Shown here: piece after piece, positions 4,808 through 47,041 of the stretch | Numbering within the stretch: the stretch's first letter is position 1 | Layout of the letters: every line of letters starts with the position of its first letter | DNA from: an uncultured Ignavibacteria bacterium | GTDB taxonomy: Bacteria; Zixibacteria; MSB-5A5; WJJR01 | NCBI GenBank assembly: GCA_964440935.1 | Contig: CAYTTY010000001.1 | Coordinates: forward strand, 148,867 to 212,866 | DNA length: 64,000 bases | Direction of reading: 5' to 3' | The notes under the pieces: generated by a model | Databases searched by the model: none | What the model was told of the DNA's origin: nothing | Seen by the model: only the letters and a program-made list of their open reading frames with translations | Translations under genes and position numbers: made by a program

Positions 4808-5340
4808 GCGTGGATCTCAAATGGTATGTGGCCCACACGTATTCGGGCCACGAAAAGAAGGCGCAACGGTATCTCGAAAGCACCTTCGCGAATGCGGGGT
4901 TGGACGACCATCTTGGTCGTGTCGTGGTGCCGACGCAGGAAGTTGTAGAAATGCGGCAGGGGAAGCGCTCGTCGTCAATGAAGAAGTTTCTCCCAGGCTA
5001 CATCCTGATCGAGTTGCACTTGACGAAGCAGACGCAGCATTTGGTGACCAACACGCCCGGCATCACGAATTTCGTCGGATCGGGCGGGAAACCGGTTCCG
5101 CTCCAGCCAGATGAAGTCGAGCGTGTACTCGGCCAGATGGACACCAGCCGCGAACAGGAAGTCACCGAGATTCCGTATCGTGTCGGTGATCAAGTGAAAG
5201 TCATCGACGGTCCGTTTTCGGATTTTGCCGGGTTTATATCGGAAGTGAACATGGAACGCAGGAAGTTGAAGGTCATGGTTTCGATCTTCGGCCGGCCGAC
5301 GCCGGTCGAGTTGGATTTCTTGCAGGTACAGTCAGGGTAG
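4804..5340 (+). CDS. nusG: transcription factor NusG
   Basis: [20 protein letters not shown] motif, [10 protein letters not shown]. Confidence 0.98.
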
Positions 5341-5357
5341 CCGTAGGGGAGTGAGTC

Positions 5358-5783
5358 GTGGCAACCAAACCAATTACCGGATATATCAAGCTGCAGATTC
5401 CCGCGGGGAGCGCCAATCCGGCGCCACCGGTGGGTCCCGCGCTCGGCCAGCACGGGGTCAATATCATGGAGTTCTGCAAGGCGTTTAACGCTAAGACACA
5501 GCAGGATGCCGGGCTGATTATTCCGGTTGTGATTACGGTCTATAAGGACAAGTCCTTTACCTTTATCACCAAGACGCCGCCCGCGTCGGTGCTCCTGACC
5601 AAGGCCGCCAAACTGCAGAAGGGGTCGCCCGAGCCGAATCGCAATAAGGTCGGCCGTGTAACCAAAAAGCAAGTGCAGGAGATCGCCGAGACCAAAATGG
5701 TCGACCTCAATGCCGCGTCGGTCGAATCGGCGATGCGGATGATCGCGGGCACGGCTCGCAGCATGGGAATTGAGGTCGTTTAA
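5358..5783 (+). CDS. rplK: 50S ribosomal protein L11
   Basis: [22 protein letters not shown]. Confidence 0.99.
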
Positions 5784-5828
5784 CGTCTCCGGAACGACAC
5801 GGTGTCATCACCGTTCATCGATAGTTGT

Positions 5829-5892
5829 GAATTCACCCGGCGACTGGACCACTCGACAACGACGTAATTGCGGGTGGGAGCTAAGGGGGTTC
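5829..5892 (+). promoter_or_regulatory. candidate L1-binding autoregulatory RNA overlapping the rplA RBS
   Basis: GGC-GACTGGA-CCACTCG pairs with CGGGTGG-GA-GCT, giving the asymmetric internal loop of L1 sites; an outer stem can pair with the SD. Confidence 0.55.
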
Positions 5893-5893
5893 A

Positions 5894-6604
5894 ATGAAGG
5901 TTGGTAAGAAGCATCGCGACGCCAAGGCCAAAATCGACCGTACCGATTTGCAGCCGCTGAGCCAGGCCATTGATACGGCCCTGGAAGTGCGACATGCCAA
6001 GTTTGACGAATCGGTTGATGTGGCGATGCGTCTGGGTGTGAATCCGAAACATGCGGATCAGATCGTCCGTGGCACTGTCATCTTGCCTCACGGAACCGGC
6101 AAATCGATCCGCGTGCTCGCCCTGACCAAGGGCGAAAAAGAAGCCGAAGCACGTGAAGCAGGTGCTGACTATGTTGGCGCCGATGAATTCGTGCAGAAGA
6201 TTCAGGATGGCTGGCTCGAGTTTGATGCCGTTGTGGCCACTCCGGATGTGATGGGCCAGGTGGGGCGACTCGGTAAGGTGTTGGGGCCGCGCGGCTTAAT
6301 GCCGTCGCCCAAGACCGGCGGTGTTACCATGGACATCGGCAAAGCCGTCGCTGACCTGAAAGCCGGTAAGGTCGAATACCGCGTCGATCGCGGTGGCAAT
6401 GTCCACAGTCTCGTTGGCAAAACGTCGTTCGGCCGCGAAAAGTTGTTCGAGAATGCCCGTGCATTTATCGATGCGGTTATTCGCGCCAAGCCGGTGGCCG
6501 CCAAAGGACAATACATTCGTCACGTCTCCGTATCCACCACGATGGGCCCGGGGATACCAGTCGATCACAGCGGTCTTCTGGCGGAGATAAAAATAAAGAA
6601 GTAG
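5894..6604 (+). CDS. rplA: 50S ribosomal protein L1
   Basis: [29 protein letters not shown]. Confidence 0.99.
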
Positions 6605-6628
6605 TCCGCGTTACCACGGAGAAGAATC

Positions 6629-7156
6629 ATGCCGCGTCCGGAAAAAGTACAAGCAGTTGATCACCTGACCGAAGAAATCAGCCAGGCGGGGTCGATCTTT
6701 ATTACCGACTATCAGGGGTTGACGGTGGCCGATATGACCGACTTGCGTGCGCAGTTGCGCCAAGCCGGGATCCGCTATCGTGTCGCCAAGAACACGCTCT
6801 TGCGGCTGGCGGCCCGGAACGCCGATATGCCCGAGCTGCTGGACCACCTGCAAGGACCCACCGCCATCGCGTTTGCCAGCGATGATCCGGTAGCGCCGGC
6901 CAAGGTTTTTCATGATTTCTACTCACGTCTCGAAAAACCACGCGTACGGATGTTTGTCACCGAACGTAAGGTGTACACGCAGGACGATCTGAAGGCGGTC
7001 GCTGCGTTGCCGCCGCGTGAAGAGATGCTGGCACAGGTGATTGCTTCCATTGAGTCGCCGCTCACCAACTTTGTCGGTACCCTGGATGCCATCATCCGCG
7101 ATTTCGTGGGCACCATTGATGCCCTGGCTCAGAAGCGAACCGACGAAGGCGGTTGA
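6629..7156 (+). CDS. rplJ: 50S ribosomal protein L10
   Basis: DYQGLTV, VAKNTLLRLA, GPTAIAF. Confidence 0.98.
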   Translation: MPRPEKVQAVDHLTEEISQAGSIFITDYQGLTVADMTDLRAQLRQAGIRYRVAKNTLLRLAARNADMPELLDHLQGPTAIAFASDDPVAPAKVFHDFYSRLEKPRVRMFVTERKVYTQDDLKAVAALPPREEMLAQVIASIESPLTNFVGTLDAIIRDFVGTIDALAQKRTDEGG

Positions 7157-7232
7157 TGCGCGGCCGGGTTTAATCATATCGGAAACAATTGCGTAAGACA
7201 CATCGGTATCTTGTAAGGAAAGGATCAGCGTC

Positions 7233-7619
7233 GTGGCAGAATCTACTACCATCGATCAGGTGGTCGACATCATCGAGAAGATGACGGTCATGGAGCTGTC
7301 GGAGCTCTCGAAGACCCTTCAGGACAAGTTCGGCGTCAGTGCGGCCGCCCCCGTGATGATGGGGGGACCCGCTGCTGGCGGTGGCGGCGAAGCAGCCGTC
7401 GAGGAAAAGACCGAATTCACTCCGTTTATGACGGCGGTGGGTGATAAGAAGATCCAAGTGATCAAGGTGATTCGTGAAATCACCGGTCTGGGACTGAAAG
7501 AAGCCAAGGAATTGGTGGACAAAGCTCCCGGAGCAGTCAAAGAGGACGTTTCGAAAGAGGAAGCTGAGTCAATTCAGTCCAAGCTGCAAGAGGTTGGCGC
7601 TGTCGTTGAAATCCGCTAA
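7233..7619 (+). CDS. rplL: 50S ribosomal protein L7/L12
   Basis: [26 protein letters not shown]. Confidence 0.99.
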
Positions 7620-7725
7620 CTCGGACCGCGCCCGATAGTCTGCCTGCAGACACCCGGCAGCCGCCCTCGCCCACGGCAAGAGCGGCCCGTGGTGCTGTAT
7701 GGCCATTTTCCCTAGGGGGTTACCC

Positions 7726-11529
<3,804 letters not shown>

Positions 11530-37370: not shown

Positions 37371-38240
37371 TTGCCCAAACGGCGCAAAAGGCCAGTTGTC
37401 ACGGCCGCCCAGATCGACGGTTCACAGAAGACCATCACCGTTGAACCGGACGCTATCATAACACCGTCGGCCTATGACCGCGCCGCCAGTCTGGGTGTCT
37501 CTCTATTCAAACAATCTCAGCCGTCCGCGCCCGGTAGTCTGTCCACTACGTCCACCGAGTTCACCTCACCCAACATCGAACACCTTGTCCGCCGCATCGA
37601 ACACACCAATCTCTCCCCAACAGCCACCCGACAGCACATCAGTCGCCTCTGCGATGAGGCCCGCACGCTCGGCTGTGCCGCGGTCTGTGTGAATCCGATT
37701 CATGTTCCATTGGCCGTCGAGTTGTGCACCGCGACACAGACGCGGGTCTGCACAGTCATTGGTTTCCCCACCGGTGCGCATCACACCAAGGTGAAGATGG
37801 AAGAGGCATCGCGCGTGGTTGGCGACGGCGCACACGAGGTCGACATGGTGGCCAATCACGCATTGCTGTTGCAGGATGAACTGTCCGCTTATGCCGCTGA
37901 TATTCGCTGTGTGCGTCAGGCGATCGGCGATCGTGTAACACTCAAGGTCATTATCGAGGCATCACAGTTGTGCGAAGAGGACATCGTCCGTGCGGCGTTG
38001 GCGGCCGAGCAATCGGGCGCCAACTACGTGAAGACGTCGACCGGAGTGTACGGGCAGGCGCGCATCGAGGATGTCCAGTTGCTGCGCCACGTGCTCCAAC
38101 CGGCAACACAGATCAAAGCGGCTGGCGGGATCAACGATGCGGCGTTTGCATTACAGCTGATCGATGCCGGAGCCGATCGCTTGGGGATGTCGAAGACGTT
38201 GGATGTGATTGGTGGTATTCGCTCTCAACGCCGCACGTAG
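37371..38240 (+). CDS. deoC: deoxyribose-phosphate aldolase with N-terminal extension
   Basis: IEHTNL, AVCVNP, VIGFPTG, EVDMV, LKVIIE, VKTSTG, IKAAGGI; TTG start after GAGGTG. Confidence 0.93.
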   Translation: MPKRRKRPVVTAAQIDGSQKTITVEPDAIITPSAYDRAASLGVSLFKQSQPSAPGSLSTTSTEFTSPNIEHLVRRIEHTNLSPTATRQHISRLCDEARTLGCAAVCVNPIHVPLAVELCTATQTRVCTVIGFPTGAHHTKVKMEEASRVVGDGAHEVDMVANHALLLQDELSAYAADIRCVRQAIGDRVTLKVIIEASQLCEEDIVRAALAAEQSGANYVKTSTGVYGQARIEDVQLLRHVLQPATQIKAAGGINDAAFALQLIDAGADRLGMSKTLDVIGGIRSQRRT

Positions 38241-38274
38241 AGCGATCGTCAGAAGAACTGTCCGATTCCACCGT

Positions 38275-38300
38275 GCCGTCATGCGCCCTCGCATGACGGC
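38275..38300. repeat. perfect 11-bp hairpin
   Basis: GCCGTCATGCG-CCCT-CGCATGACGGC. Confidence 0.85.
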
Positions 38301-38329
38301 TAACTCCGATTTCGACGAGATCATCATCC

Positions 38330-38401
38330 GTAGGGGCGTATTGCATACGCCCTTCGGTACAACGTCCTGCGACGGTTCGGGCGTATGCAATACGCCCCTA
38401 C
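38330..38401. repeat. GTAG-class REP doublet (REPIN-like)
   Basis: GTAGGGGCGTATTGCATACGCCC (38330-38352) and its perfect reverse complement (38379-38401). Confidence 0.9.
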
Positions 38402-38529
38402 GAAAACACGCTTACTACGTAGCACACCTTTTTCAACACGCTCCCTCAAGGCCGGTGGCTCCCCCATGTAATCACCAAACCCACCGGGCTTCACTTCATC
38501 GCAATCGGAAGTGTAATCTGACAATCGCT

Positions 38530-40710
38530 CTATAACCGCCGTCGCCGTGACTTGCGATCTTTCCCATGAATCGGACACTCGGTCTCGGCGTCTTCTTTAC
38601 GCAGAACAACTTCTTCGTGAGTGCCGGGACAATCCTCAGTGGCTTTGAAGAAACTCTCGTCGCACGCAGTGTAGGTGAACACACTTGGTGGCTGTACGAA
38701 GTCAATCGGCGGAAGTGAATCACAGGCGACTTTCATGTACTCCGTCCAGATCGGCAATGCCGTTGCCGCGCCGGTGCCGGTGTGGTACCCCCCGATTGGT
38801 GTCTTCATATCATAACCAACCCACACGACGGTCGTAATCTGCGGCGTGAAACCGGCATACCAGTTGTCCATGTACTCGTTGGATGTTCCGGTTTTGCCCG
38901 CTGCCGGACGCGTAAAGCCGCGACGTCGCGCGCCCGCACCGGTACCGTTGCCACGCATCACTGATTCGAGCACATGCAGCACGACATACGAGTTCTGAGC
39001 CGACAATACTTCTTCGCGCACCGGTGTGGTATTGTCTTCAATCACTCCACCGAAGCGGTCAGTGATCTTCTTGATCAATGTTGGCTGTGTGCGAATGCCG
39101 CCATTGGGGAAGACCGAGTACGCGCCGGCCAGATCGATGGGAATGACTTCGGAACTGCCAATCGCCAATGACGGTACCGGAGTGAGGGGGGTGGTGATGC
39201 CCATCCGCTTCGCGTAGAAGGCCACTTGGCGCGGATCGAGGTTCAGCAACAGCTTGATTGACACAAGGTTACGCGACTCCTGGAAGCCCTGCCGGATACT
39301 GATCGGCCCCTTGAATTTCTGGTCGAAGTTGTTCGGGCTCCACTCGCCGAAACCCGGAATGTTCAGAACAATCGGGGAATCATAAATCGTATCGCGCGGC
39401 AGGAAGCCCTCTTCAACGGCTGTGGTCAATATGAACGGTTTAAACGCGGATCCGGGTTGACGCAACGCCCGAGTCGCGCGGTTGAATTCACTCTCGCTGA
39501 AATCATACCCGCCGACCATGGCCAGCACACCGCCGGTCGCGTTGTCAATCGATACCAATGCTGCCTGCAGCTTTTTGTGCACACGAACTGTTTCGCCGAG
39601 CGTAGTATCGAACACCGGGATCGTGTATTTGGGATCGTCCGGAGCGTGACGCTTCTGAGCCGCCGCACGCAGCGAATCGAGATGGTCGCGGATAATCTCT
39701 TCGGCTTGACGTTGCAGCGACGTGTCAATCGTGGTGTAGATGCGCAATCCTTCGCTGTAGAGAGTGTCCTCGCCGTACTTCTTGCCGATGTATTGGCGAA
39801 CTTCCTCGGCGAAATAGTCACCGACTTTGCGCTCGCTCTGACCGGCATTCAATTGAATCGGCTGCGCAGCGAGCGAATCGTACGTGGCTTTGTCCAGGTC
39901 ACCGACAGCGACCATGCCACGCAAGACAACATTTCGACGCTGCCGCGATAATTCCTCATTGTTGCGCGGTGAGTACCGTGACGGAGCCGGCAGAAGTCCA
40001 ATCAAAACGGCCGACTCTTCGACTTTCAGATCGTCGACATTCTTTCCGAAATACCCCTGCGCGGCAGCCTGAACACCATAGGCGCCGGCCCCATAGTAGT
40101 TCTGGTTGAGATACATCTCGATGATTTCATCTTTTGCATACTGCCGCTCGAGACGTACCGCCGTCATCCATTCTTTGACCTTGCGCGAGATGGTCCGCTC
40201 CCGCGTGAGGAACAACTGGCGCGCCAACTGCTGGGTGATGGTCGATCCGCCCTGGGGACGTTGCCCGCGCAACGGCTGGATGATGACACCGCGCACAATT
40301 GCTGTCCATTCGACGCCCCAGTGATCGTTAAACCCACGATCTTCGGAGGCTAACAGGGCTTGGATCATGTTCTCCGGAATCTTCTCAAACGGCGTCCAGA
40401 CACGTCTCTCAGTGAAGTACTCATAGAACTGTTCACCGTTGCGGTCATACAGCCGCGTCAACAGCCGCGGCTTGATGTTGTACACGCGTTCAATCGAGGG
40501 CAGGTCCTTGCTGTAGACAATCAGTGTGGTGACGATCCACGCCATCACCATCGCGGCGAGCACAGTACCACCGACCAGGAGAATAGAGCGGCGCGATTGC
40601 GGCAGCTTTATGCGGAACCGTGGCCGTTTCTTATAGCTCCAGGACTTCTTCGGAGAAACGGTTTCGGTGACGCCGGTGAGATCGATGTCGTTCTTATGCT
40701 GTGTCATCAC
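38530..40710 (-). CDS. class A penicillin-binding protein 1A family
   Basis: TM anchor, GT51 motifs (SEDRGF, GGSTITQQL, RKVKE), transpeptidase SAFK, SRN, KTG. Confidence 0.95.
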   Translation of the reverse strand: MMTQHKNDIDLTGVTETVSPKKSWSYKKRPRFRIKLPQSRRSILLVGGTVLAAMVMAWIVTTLIVYSKDLPSIERVYNIKPRLLTRLYDRNGEQFYEYFTERRVWTPFEKIPENMIQALLASEDRGFNDHWGVEWTAIVRGVIIQPLRGQRPQGGSTITQQLARQLFLTRERTISRKVKEWMTAVRLERQYAKDEIIEMYLNQNYYGAGAYGVQAAAQGYFGKNVDDLKVEESAVLIGLLPAPSRYSPRNNEELSRQRRNVVLRGMVAVGDLDKATYDSLAAQPIQLNAGQSERKVGDYFAEEVRQYIGKKYGEDTLYSEGLRIYTTIDTSLQRQAEEIIRDHLDSLRAAAQKRHAPDDPKYTIPVFDTTLGETVRVHKKLQAALVSIDNATGGVLAMVGGYDFSESEFNRATRALRQPGSAFKPFILTTAVEEGFLPRDTIYDSPIVLNIPGFGEWSPNNFDQKFKGPISIRQGFQESRNLVSIKLLLNLDPRQVAFYAKRMGITTPLTPVPSLAIGSSEVIPIDLAGAYSVFPNGGIRTQPTLIKKITDRFGGVIEDNTTPVREEVLSAQNSYVVLHVLESVMRGNGTGAGARRRGFTRPAAGKTGTSNEYMDNWYAGFTPQITTVVWVGYDMKTPIGGYHTGTGAATALPIWTEYMKVACDSLPPIDFVQPPSVFTYTACDESFFKATEDCPGTHEEVVLRKEDAETECPIHGKDRKSRRRRL

Positions 40711-44400: not shown

Positions 44401-44533
44401 GGCCGCCGTCGTCTCGGCGGCTTTTGAGCTTAGGATGGGGCTGCCGGCAGCATGACCATGAGCGTGTGATCTCGCTGCCTGGGCGTCGTCGTGTACGTGC
44501 ACACTCGAACTTATGTTTTGGAGGACAACGCAC

Positions 44534-45610
44534 ATGATGTTCATCACCCGCAGTGTGATGATCACAACTCTGCTTCTCGCGACTTACTCAATTGTATGGG
44601 CCGACGACAGTGTGGACTTGGAAAAGGGCGAATTCAATATCGGCGGCTATCTGCAGGTGAAGTATGAAGACCACGAGGACTCACGTAATCCGATCCTCAA
44701 CGAGGATCGGACTCTGATCAAGCGGAACATGAACCACATCTACATCCGACGTGGTCGACTCAAGGTGGAATACCAGGTCACGGAGGCCAGCAAGTTCCGG
44801 ATCTACTTCGATGGTGCCAAGGACAAACTAAATCTCCTGGAAGCATGGATAGAGTTGAAGCACGCGTTTGGCCCGGTCGAAACGAAACTGCGTGTCGGCC
44901 AGCAAAACATTCCATTTGGCTTCGAAAACTGGTACTCGTCTGCCAGACGCGACCTTCCTGAGCGATCCTTGGCGCAGAATTCCTTTTTCGCGGGTGAACG
45001 AGAACGGCTTGTCAACCTGACAGTGACGCCCATCCACCAGCTTGCTGTCAATGTGGCTGTGCTGAATGGTCCCGGTTTGAAGGATGATGATTTCCCTTAC
45101 GAGTCCCCATTTGAGGATACCAAAGACATTCTGGCGCGAATTCGCACTGAGAATGAACTCGACGATCTCACCATCTCCGGTGGTGTGTCGGGATATTTGG
45201 GCAAGCAATTCGATGAATCCGATTCGGTCGATTTCAGGACTGATAAGAATCGGTACGGCGCTGATGCGCAGGTCGAATTCAATGTTGTCCCCGAATTGGG
45301 CGAATCGGCTGTCCGTGGCGAGGTGATGATCGGCGAGGAGTTCGGCCTGCGAAAGATCGGCTACTATGTGTGGCTCTCCCAGCGGCTGGGCCAACATTTC
45401 GGAGCCGCCGCGCGGTACGACGTCTTTGATCGGAATGCCCGCGCCGAAGATGGAACCCGGACGGATCGGGTGTCGCTGGCGGGCAACTACTACTACGATG
45501 CCCATGTTCGTTTCACGCTGTCCTACGACATGGTCAAGACGGAGGAAGTCGGCGAGAGGACCGATGTCGCCGATAATGTGCTGACATTGATGCTGCAATA
45601 CGCGATTTAG
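44534..45610 (+). CDS. outer-membrane porin, phosphate-selective OprO/OprP-like
   Basis: Signal peptide, GGYLQ, RRGRLKV, GQ..IPFG.E...S...ERS pattern, amphipathic beta strands; linked to Pho box and phoU. Confidence 0.75.
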   Translation: MMFITRSVMITTLLLATYSIVWADDSVDLEKGEFNIGGYLQVKYEDHEDSRNPILNEDRTLIKRNMNHIYIRRGRLKVEYQVTEASKFRIYFDGAKDKLNLLEAWIELKHAFGPVETKLRVGQQNIPFGFENWYSSARRDLPERSLAQNSFFAGERERLVNLTVTPIHQLAVNVAVLNGPGLKDDDFPYESPFEDTKDILARIRTENELDDLTISGGVSGYLGKQFDESDSVDFRTDKNRYGADAQVEFNVVPELGESAVRGEVMIGEEFGLRKIGYYVWLSQRLGQHFGAAARYDVFDRNARAEDGTRTDRVSLAGNYYYDAHVRFTLSYDMVKTEEVGERTDVADNVLTLMLQYAI

Positions 45611-45740
45611 AGCGGTTGTCAGAATTCCGTTCCGATTGAGAAGAGGCGAGACCCCGCTTCATTGACACTCACTTTCGGGTGCCACGGGCCTTTAGCCCCG
45701 TGAACTGGGATCGTCCGAATGTGGAACCACGGGCCTGAAG

Positions 45741-45890
45741 GCCCGTGTTGAAAAACCCCCGAGAATCAGAGCCTTCGGGAGGGCGAGCCTCCCGGCGAGC
45801 CGCAACGGCATGTTCCACGCGGCGGCTCGGCGGGAGCCTCGCCCTCCCCAGTCTGAGGTGATGATAGTCAGCAGGTTTTTCAACACACCC
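45741..45890. mobile_element. MITE family A (150 bp) with target duplication
   Basis: Perfect 13-bp IR GTGTTGAAAAACC/GGTTTTTCAACAC; flanking direct repeat CTGAAG at 45735-45740 and 45891-45896. Confidence 0.85.
45777..45848. repeat. GGAG-class REP doublet inside MITE A
   Basis: GGGAGGGCGAGCCTCCCGGCGAGCCGC and inverted copy at 45822-45848 (25/27). Confidence 0.85.
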
Positions 45891-46092
45891 CTGAAGGACC
45901 GTGGCACCCCAATGGAAACGGAAAATACTTCTGACAATTGCTCTAAACGTGCTGATTGGGGACATTCGACCGGACCCCGCCGCGGATTTTTGTTTGGCCT
46001 TCGTGCTGACCGCCGTACACTGTTTCCGAGACAGAGGCTGTGTTGGCGATTGGGTCAGGGAGTCGTCACTCGATACCGACAAGGATAGCGTA

Positions 46093-46752
46093 ATGGTGCA
46101 ACGACACTTCGATGAGGAATTGGCGGAACTGCGTAGGCAGTTGGCGGTGATGGGCTCGTTGGCCGAGTCGATGATCCGGCAGGGCGCGTTGATGCTGATG
46201 TCGCCCAATGACGAAACCGCCGAGCAGCTTCTTAAAGACGAAGACGAGGTCAACCGGCTGCACATGGCGATCGATGAGTCCTGCATGCGTCTTCTGGTCT
46301 TGCGGCAGCCGGTCGCCGTCGACATGCGCTTCCTGGCGTCCACCTTGCGCATGAGCGGCGAATTGGAACGCATCGGCGATCAGTCCATCAACCTGATGCG
46401 ACGCGCCCGCAAGCTCGAACGCGGCGCCCCGCTACCCCTGCCCATCGACCTGCAGCCGATGATCGACATCGTCGTCCGCATGGTCAACGACAGCCTTGAT
46501 GCCTTCACGCGCAAAGACGTCAAGCTCGCCAAGCGCGTGCTGGAACTCGAACAGAACGCCGACGATCTGCGTCATCTTTACGAAGACGAACTCGCGACAG
46601 CGGGCGAGAAGCGCGGACGCGATATCATCTTCTACATCCAGCTTACGATGATTGTCTACCACCTCGAACGCATCGCCGACCACGCCACCAACATCGCCGA
46701 AGACGTGATCTTCCTTGTCGAAGGCGAGGATATTCGGCATCAGCATTTATAG
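46093..46752 (+). CDS. phoU: phosphate signalling protein PhoU
   Basis: QPVAVDMR, ELERIGD, LERIADHATNIAEDVIFLVEG; ATG after AAGGA. Confidence 0.96.
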   Translation: MVQRHFDEELAELRRQLAVMGSLAESMIRQGALMLMSPNDETAEQLLKDEDEVNRLHMAIDESCMRLLVLRQPVAVDMRFLASTLRMSGELERIGDQSINLMRRARKLERGAPLPLPIDLQPMIDIVVRMVNDSLDAFTRKDVKLAKRVLELEQNADDLRHLYEDELATAGEKRGRDIIFYIQLTMIVYHLERIADHATNIAEDVIFLVEGEDIRHQHL

Positions 46753-46867: not shown

Positions 46868-47041
46868 GGGAGTGTTGAAATAGTCCAAGAACTGATCGAT
46901 CATGTCACGCACCGAGAAAATGTTCATCCGTAGGGGCGTACTGAGTACGCCCGGCCTCGTAGCGGTTACGCGCGGAGGGCGTATTCAATACGCCCCTACA
47001 AAAGCACGTCTTCTGCAAGGCACGCGTTTTTCAACACGCCC
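46868..47041. mobile_element. MITE family A (174 bp)
   Basis: ATAGGGAGTGTTGAAA vs reverse complement of TTTCAACACGCCCTAT, 15/16; imperfect flanking repeat CCATAG/CTATAG. Confidence 0.75.
46930..46999. repeat. GTAG-class REP doublet (same family as 38330)
   Basis: GTAGGGGCGTACTGAGTACGCCC ... GGGCGTATTCAATACGCCCCTAC; shares flanks TCATCC and TTTTTCAACACGC with the 38.3-kb copy. Confidence 0.88.

Follow-up and report, generated by a model that had tools for sequence, protein, structure and literature searches.

IS1272, a member of the IS1182 family of insertion sequences, inserts at inverted repeats of unrelated sequence (Wan et al., PMC5678879). Wan et al. propose a structure-dependent transposition, in which IS1272 replaces a stem-loop without duplication, and their model includes a branch that duplicates only the loop; Siguier et al. 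are cited there for palindrome-targeting members of the IS1182 family (PMC5678879). Repetitive extragenic palindromic (REP) sequences serve as targets for elements of the IS3, IS110, IS4, IS256 and IS5 families, with IS1397, ISKpn1, IS621, ISPpu9/10, ISRm22 and ISRm5 as examples (Tobes and Pareja, PMC1525189). In other phyla REP dimers are regularly found inside longer palindromes, and one REP family is inserted in small GC-rich palindromes that also have hundreds of free copies (Di Nocera et al., PMC3733652). Nezha of cyanobacteria is a miniature inverted-repeat transposable element, or MITE, of the IS630 family (PMC3733652). Here we describe a 338-bp composite element that combines these motifs in one spacer. 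It lies at positions 45608-45945 of a 64,000-nucleotide stretch, hereafter the window, from the genome of an uncultured Ignavibacteria bacterium.

We suggest, with a probability of about 0.8, that the composite is a non-autonomous IS630-family MITE which inserted at the TA of a porin gene's stop codon after the split from the sister species, and that its interior derives from earlier, separate events. Every component is of a known kind, and the locus is a well-resolved example, not a new kind of system. New here are the resolved history of four layers, the identification of both DDE transposase families and an extensive set of natural loop duplications left by an IS1182-type MITE.

The genome (G000), a draft assembly of 3.9 Mb in 89 contigs, has a G+C content of 57% and a marker-gene completeness of 99.8%; the window is C1:148867-212866, and coordinates without a contig name refer to the window. 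It was compared with 14 other genomes of the bacterial family and with a sister genome of the same genus (G001, 88% complete); 31 genomes overall were searched for a terminus pattern. Fuzzy terminus counts allow at most three mismatches for the outer terminus and two for that of the inner element, and the control is the reversed sequence. Public data are DNA contigs from four runs of one study, labelled microbial mat metagenome.

Anatomy of the 338-bp composite and its copies

Both the letters and a repeat search place four nested layers at 45608-45945, as the initial annotation had claimed, and the 338 bp hold no gene. The outer shell has terminal inverted repeats at 45608-45637 (plus strand) and 45916-45945 (minus strand). 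The first TA of the left repeat is the presumed target dinucleotide, and the right repeat has TA at its end. In the repeat search the pair extends over 45606-45637 and 45916-45947 (32 nt, 78% complementary). The terminal repeats had thus been recognised correctly, with a match count of 17 of 19 that we correct to 16 of 19.

Inside the shell lies an inverted doublet of a palindrome that we call X. X palindrome 1 (45677-45702, plus strand; 45682-45702 in the repeat search) has its GGGTGCC head at the left. X palindrome 2 is split: its left part (45727-45747, plus strand, the same in the repeat search) reads here as a complete hairpin with the loop TGAA, and its right half with the head reversed (GGCACCC) is found at 45896-45910 (plus strand). 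Element A separates these parts. It occupies 45742-45889, 148 bp if the duplication is 8 nt, and its ends are of the IS1182-family type. The core of A (45745-45886) begins with the 13 nt GTGTTGAAAAACC (45745-45757) and ends with their complement (45874-45886), a perfect inverted repeat. On both sides of A stands the direct repeat CCTGAAGG, at 45734-45741 and 45890-45897 (both plus strand), which consists of the loop TGAA plus CC/GG and contains the CTGAAG duplication described earlier. A itself encloses a REP doublet of the GGAG class (45777-45848), with two 27-nt arms (45777-45803 and 45822-45848, 93% complementary) and an 18-nt spacer.

The layers are not a chance arrangement. The outer terminus has 642 fuzzy matches in the genome and 74 in the reversed sequence, the A terminus 332 and 43; intact copies of the X palindrome occupy 71 loci (36 within paired shells) and are absent from the control, and there are 134 GGAG arms (46 doublets), whereas the control has 2. 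Folded as single-stranded DNA, the 338 nt give a single nested stem of -101.6 kcal/mol, compared with -54.1 +/- 4.1 for shuffled sequences (z -11.6). The composite matches no Rfam family at threshold. The same search on REP doublets of another class, tagged GTAG, gave only sub-threshold look-alikes of microRNA hairpins.

The composite is one of five near-identical copies in the genome (C1:194474, C11:7432, C14:61997 and C77:6852 at 98% identity; C2:187862 at 94%, 347 bp). All four layers are present in each copy, and the flanks differ between copies. The five composites are descendants of one nested ancestor that moved as a unit.

Upstream of the composite is the gene of a phosphate-selective porin (Porin_O_P; 44513-45610, plus strand), whose stop codon is formed by the first three bases of the MITE; phoU follows downstream (46093-46752, plus strand). 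The porin orthologue in the sister genome ends with the same TAG stop, and there is no MITE in its porin-phoU spacer. The left junction of the shell coincides with the TA of this orthologous stop codon.

The TAG of the IS630-type terminus serves as a gene's stop codon at two places in the window, 45608-45610 and 38238-38240. Genome-wide, 273 termini start with TAG, and 15 of these terminate an open frame of at least 200 codons that lies upstream, compared with 3 and 2 in the other two frames. GTAG REPs likewise supply stop codons (PMC3733652).

Element A, its palindromic targets and its parent family

Forms with and without A are both present. Two paralogues, C14:55081-55262 and C26:50-231, each 182 bp long, share the shell and the X doublet but are without A, 156 bp being absent. 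In the sister genome the match is confined to positions 1-140 and 283-338 of the composite in at least seven copies. The two of these that were read have an unbroken second X hairpin with the loop TGAA, the exact predicted target, and the A core itself gave no match there among the matches listed. A public contig also jumps from 45733 to 45890, so that 156 nt are missing; 8 letters at the join could be assigned to either side, and the contig may represent a paralogue. The absence of exactly 156 bp in the paralogues and in the sister species bears out the initial description of A as a discrete unit.

Within G000 we count 73 pairs of A termini at most 400 bp apart, 32 of them inside paired outer shells; 60 of 109 matches to the A core cover at least 80% of it. 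X halves joined to an A end are found 111 times in addition to the intact palindromes. The flanks pair with each other at seven or more of eight positions in 51 of 72 A copies, compared with 2.1% of 3000 random sites. The preference of A for palindrome loops, suggested in the initial annotation, is thus strong. In the best-matching public run the summed contig depth is 5,000-9,000 over the A core (45748-45875) and about 31 in the flanks, where none of the contigs spans the whole stretch and where depth and uncovered parts are uninformative on alleles or expression; the depth fits a high copy number in the community.

The loops next to A are duplicated. CC-TNNA-GG is present on both sides in 40 of the 73 pairs, and the two loops are direct repeats in 31, inverted in 3, palindromic in 1 and neither in 5. 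With the right-hand loops shuffled 5000 times, direct matches average 6.9 and never exceed 15. Since copies amplified inside shells are not independent, they were grouped by their outer flanks. Direct repeats mark 15 of the 19 context groups; 2 groups are inverted, 1 is palindromic and 1 fits none of these. The matched loops, oriented by the A core, are TTGA (14), TGAA (7), TAAA (4), TCAA (3), TTTA (2) and TTAA (1). A flanking loop repeat that is direct and varies between independent copies is the signature of target duplication. The simplest reading of the A flanks is repeated insertion with duplication of the loop, because a long inverted repeat inherited as a unit would give complementary instead of identical loops, and would not give six kinds of them. 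Descent from a single duplication, which had been named as the alternative for all nested copies, thus holds for the five 338-bp composites and does not hold for A, with at least six different loops duplicated.

The maximal direct repeats at the A flanks range from 4 to 8 nt on different targets, and the length of the duplication is ambiguous, since the CC and GG also match A's own end. Because these repeats vary with the target and show no fixed stagger, it is conceivable, although we hold it only tentatively, that A joins at the loop base of an extruded palindrome and reads structure instead of sequence, so that the duplicated segment follows the loop. If this is true, the A copies would provide natural evidence, many times over, for the branch of the IS1272 structure-dependent transposition model in which only the loop is duplicated. 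The same reading would also explain how REP doublets spread as passengers of MITE shells without a cognate REP-associated tyrosine transposase (RAYT).

Full-length elements with the termini of A are found outside G000. A scan of the metagenome contigs for the 18-nt A terminus gave 69 loci. At three of them inverted termini stand 1.40-1.56 kb apart around an open reading frame (ORF) of 443-455 aa; a fourth pair of termini, separated by 2455 bp, surrounds an ORF that does not encode a transposase. Four genomes of relatives from other genera (G005, which is of the same bacterial family, G010, G008 and G015) have one locus each with an A-bounded element of about 1.4 kb. This makes seven full-length elements of 1.40-1.56 kb, each with an open frame of 444-467 aa. 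The three metagenome proteins contain DUF772 and DDE_Tnp_1_6 domains, and the two scanned by NCBIfam are assigned to the IS1182 family (366 and 356 bits, cut-off 270). One of these two, L082, has relatives in the four genomes at 66-100% identity: the G005 gene is 100% identical to the metagenome protein, and G010, G008 and G015 have intact relatives at 66-75%. Six of the seven full-length copies have both flanks readable and lie, by eye, between complementary arms; a GTAG-tagged palindrome surrounds one copy, and direct repeats of 5-6 nt accompany two. The pattern of the A terminus occurs 102 times in G000 and 27 times in the sister genome and is present in 9 of the 14 other family genomes, while the reversed pattern is found 0 times in family genomes and once across the 31 genomes. 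Because full-length elements with the same termini encode IS1182-family transposases, A is best read as a MITE of an IS1182-family element, with only the terminus common to A and the parents found.

In G000 itself the protein search for an IS1182 transposase gave only a 30%-identical 192-aa fragment of another element, and in the sister genome there are only IS1182-type fragments with stop codons. Near the ends of G000 contigs there are 13 A termini, and each of them leads into an interior of MITE type. A shell of A type without a REP doublet was sought, and only deletion derivatives of A turned up.

Several other candidates for the partner of A were rejected. An origin of A in the IS6 family, considered from a likeness of the termini and the 8-nt duplication, is not supported: PF13610 (IS6) has no match above cut-off in 15 family genomes and one sub-threshold match in the sister genome. 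In G000, nothing was found for PF13610, PF00665 (rve), PF01610 (ISL3), PF01548 (IS110) or PF03050 (IS66), and the match to PF01609 is one IS5-like element with unrelated ends. An IS256-like element, L040:1426-2802 (G000 C5:114772-116148), was dropped in favour of the IS1182 family, its right end having only 8 terminal letters in common with A; this single IS256-family element (PF00872) has a 9-nt duplication, and its 25-nt ends are imperfect. In the sister genome, two A-type ends that span 1.36 kb (L037:1245-2602, contig C408) enclose a 198-aa non-transposase ORF and do not represent a parent. Each of these ends has a GTAG-tagged REP doublet, with 1.2 kb between them, a transposon-like layout. 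The self-comparison of G000 for repeats of at least 450 bp revealed no further multi-copy mobile element. A 3.2-kb segment with a subtilase gene and an ORF without Pfam match is duplicated at 96% identity (C4:7576-10784 and C25:51-3261).

The following observations weigh against the history that we propose. Next to the junction the orthologous spacer in the sister genome differs over about 45 nt and thus falls short of a clean empty site. Eight of the 40 loop pairs are not direct, and about ten further A copies in CWWG-centred palindromes, 6 direct and 4 inverted by reading, decide nothing. The 182-bp paralogues have an imperfect right arm and could also arise by deletion between repeats, so the direction of gain or loss within G000 rests mainly on the sister species. 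A shares only a 13-18-nt terminus with the full-length IS1182 elements. Many A cores are 96-99% alike, though no IS1182-family transposase was found in G000; with a draft of 89 contigs, this absence is not proven.

The missing partner and the eight mismatched loop pairs are also what makes a spread of A without transposase conceivable, by recombination, gene conversion or template switching between X palindromes through the homology of their arms. Chimeras are indeed present, at C54:5780, where the first X loop is joined to the second, and in the copy at 38.3 kb. However, conversion would carry the donor loops along and not create direct duplications of six loops, the arms of 9-14 nt are short for homologous exchange, and full-length transposase-encoding elements with the same ends occupy the same kind of site. 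We consider this explanation improbable. Less probable still is that A and the adjoining palindrome halves are one element with terminal repeats of about 36 nt, which lands anywhere and does not target X. It would account for the same flanking halves in nearly every A copy and for the 38-nt imperfect inverted repeat of the repeat search (45720-45757 and 45874-45911). The intact X palindromes at 71 loci, the very site unbroken in the paralogues and in the sister species, the central loop letters that are direct and not inverted, with six matched kinds among the copies, and the presence of the same A subfamily in palindromes with other stems all speak against it. As for the possibility that the hairpin stack is kept for a signalling role in RNA or DNA in the porin-phoU spacer, for instance as a terminator, a stabiliser of mRNA or a site for protein binding, and that its mobility is secondary, the very stable fold, the position directly 3' of a stop codon and the roles proposed for REPs and MITEs (PMC3733652) would suit it, but it is hardly credible in view of the lack of an Rfam family at threshold, the sister-species spacer without such an element and the same composite in five unrelated contexts.

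The outer shell, the REP doublets and other composites

The terminus of the outer shell leads to an element with a transposase in the same genome. Two elements of 1117 bp (C12:48391-49507 and C59:17853-18969), each with an intact gene, have about 30 nt of terminus in common with the 338-bp shell. The encoded protein has helix-turn-helix domains and DDE_3 (Pfam E 8.5e-37) and is assigned to the IS630 family by NCBIfam (234 bits, cut-off 100). Relatives of this transposase, at no more than 77% identity, are found in metagenome-assembled genomes labelled Desulfobacterales, Omnitrophota and Herpetosiphon. The listed outer-type copies have TA at start and end, and in 11 places two copies abut with one TA in common. 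The shell is small, non-coding and multi-copy. From the shared termini of the two 1117-bp elements, the TA ends and the abutting copies, we take the shell to be an IS630-family MITE with its parent in the same genome. The proposal that the outer element targets hairpins is thus replaced: it is IS630-type and appears to use TA, with its transposase elsewhere in the genome. The remark that the window contains no transposase holds for the families searched, all matches being outside it. The 164 paired outer-type elements of 50-1000 bp form 49 clusters whose interiors differ widely. Such repeats interrupt the assembly, and many contigs stop 30-50 nt inside an outer-type terminus.

X and GGAG are abundant, short, GC-rich palindromes arranged as inverted doublets, with the GGGTGCC head of each X unit directed outward as it is in a REPIN, the inverted REP doublet. 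The composite's X and GGAG repeat lack the GTAG tag of the GTAG REP superfamily. The GGAG doublet (composite positions 168-241) is the sole part of the composite matched in all 14 other family genomes. Nine of ten loci read in other genera hold a complete GGAG doublet that stands alone in unique flanks. In G000, A-type termini are present at most 75 nt away on both sides of 43 of the 46 GGAG doublets; the same is true of 21 of 39 GTAG doublets (12 more on one side) and of 8 of 3000 random sites. We suggest that the GGAG doublets in G000 probably travel as passengers of A-type ends.

A link to RAYTs, which the initial annotation proposed, is not supported. G000 has nine matches to Y1_Tnp (IS200-like), and the two genes scanned are assigned to REP_Tyr_transpos by NCBIfam (86.9 and 91 bits, cut-off 80). 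None of the nine has an X or GGAG repeat within 700 bp, and A is tied to an IS1182 DDE transposase instead. The five Y1 genes that were examined (L002, L003, L005, L007 and L008, on C13, C1, C17 and C2) each have flanking palindromes of their own, with a similar GGGTGCC-type head in three of the five. The palindrome of the Y1 gene at C1:42143-42829 is close to the CWWG-centred targets of A, and those of the gene at C17:27758-28330 fill two of the largest shell families.

Two further composites in the window had been described as repeating the same order of layers. A GTAG doublet is present in both (38330-38401 and 46930-46999), and the full set of layers is in neither. The element at 38238-38532 combines the two outer ends with a single A terminus and a single X half and forms a singleton cluster (cluster 20). 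Its left part has the palindrome typical of a 161-bp shell family, and its right part has the X half, the A terminus and the GTAG doublet; it looks like a chimera with another shell family. The element at 46872-47037 is of the A type and has no recognisable outer shell: its flanks give no match to the outer terminus within 3 mismatches of 17. Exchangeable cargo within one backbone is not supported either: A subfamilies with different doublets have only the 13-18-nt terminus in common and differ in their whole interiors.

Outer-type elements are also found at the TA of X loops, directly beside A copies (C3:153264-153405, C78:7205-7346, C39:4734 and C20:34085), so the order of nesting is not fixed. 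From the hierarchy of elements that target each other's hairpins, as originally envisaged, the nesting and the insertion of A in hairpins remain and the strict hierarchy does not: the elements often land in each other, with no fixed order of rank.

Two other modules of 22-24 nt are found in loops of GTAG-type and other palindromes, for example at C64:9030-9182 and C2:156327-156502. They have 18 and 43 copies compared with 0 in the controls, and no duplication is evident. These modules explain why one shell family comes in a series of sizes (128, 153 and 176 bp).

Proposed history and comparison with known systems

Hence, we suggest that the composite was assembled and dispersed in four steps. 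In the first step, the ancestral element would be the 182-bp MITE, already with the inverted X doublet; this form is present in both species. In the second step, which would be confined to the present lineage, A of about 150 bp would insert in the centre of the second X palindrome with duplication of the loop. The third step concerns A itself, which would have come to enclose a REP doublet that has dispersed on its own across the bacterial family. In the fourth step, the finished composite would spread as a whole to five TA sites, presumably through the IS630 transposase from another part of the genome, and at one of these sites it would come to supply the stop codon of the porin gene. The order of the first three steps, the enzyme that moved each layer and the way in which the REP doublet arrived between the A ends are inferred, whereas the anatomy, the copy numbers, the two forms with and without A, the duplicated loops, the preference for palindromes and the transposase family behind each kind of terminus are direct results.

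Three transposition systems have thus left their marks in 338 bp, with the steps still readable: an IS630 DDE transposase with TA as target, an IS1182 DDE transposase with stem-loops as targets, and RAYT-type REP doublets. The many copies of A form a natural series of insertions into hairpins with different loops. It is relevant to the way in which IS1182-family enzymes select and cleave structured targets, for which the argument has so far relied on a few IS1272 insertions. REP doublets can also multiply as MITE cargo, which matters when REPINs are counted or when RAYT activity is inferred from them.

Like other IS630-family MITEs, the shell is short, non-coding and multi-copy, has the termini of a full-length element of the same genome and has TA at both ends. 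Unlike them, its interior consists of REP doublets and a second MITE and not of a deleted remnant of the parent, and the same ends enclose dozens of unrelated interiors (the 49 clusters). RUP with IS630-Spn1 is a system that we take to be comparable among IS630-family MITEs.

X and the GGAG repeat are similar to REPINs in being GC-rich palindromes arranged as inverted doublets (PMC3116915, PMC3337134, PMC3733652). In contrast to the REPIN/RAYT systems in those accounts, none of the nine Y1 genes here is flanked by X or GGAG. The nested REPs of Di Nocera et al. are found in other organisms, and the sections of that study that bear on the nesting do not work out the transposase family, the target duplication or the empty sites (PMC3733652).

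The A-type ends make this system similar to IS1272 and other IS1182 elements, as IS1182 transposases stand behind these ends and the targets are palindromes with unrelated stems (PMC5678879). However, unlike IS1272 as presented in the corresponding sections of Wan et al., A is non-autonomous, with no partner found in G000; it keeps the stem, duplicates the loop and holds a REP doublet. Last, A inserts specifically within REP-type palindromes and in this resembles the REP-targeting insertion sequences reviewed by Tobes and Pareja (PMC1525189). Those elements, as described there, are autonomous, whereas A, as best read here, is an IS1182-family MITE which itself holds a REP doublet.

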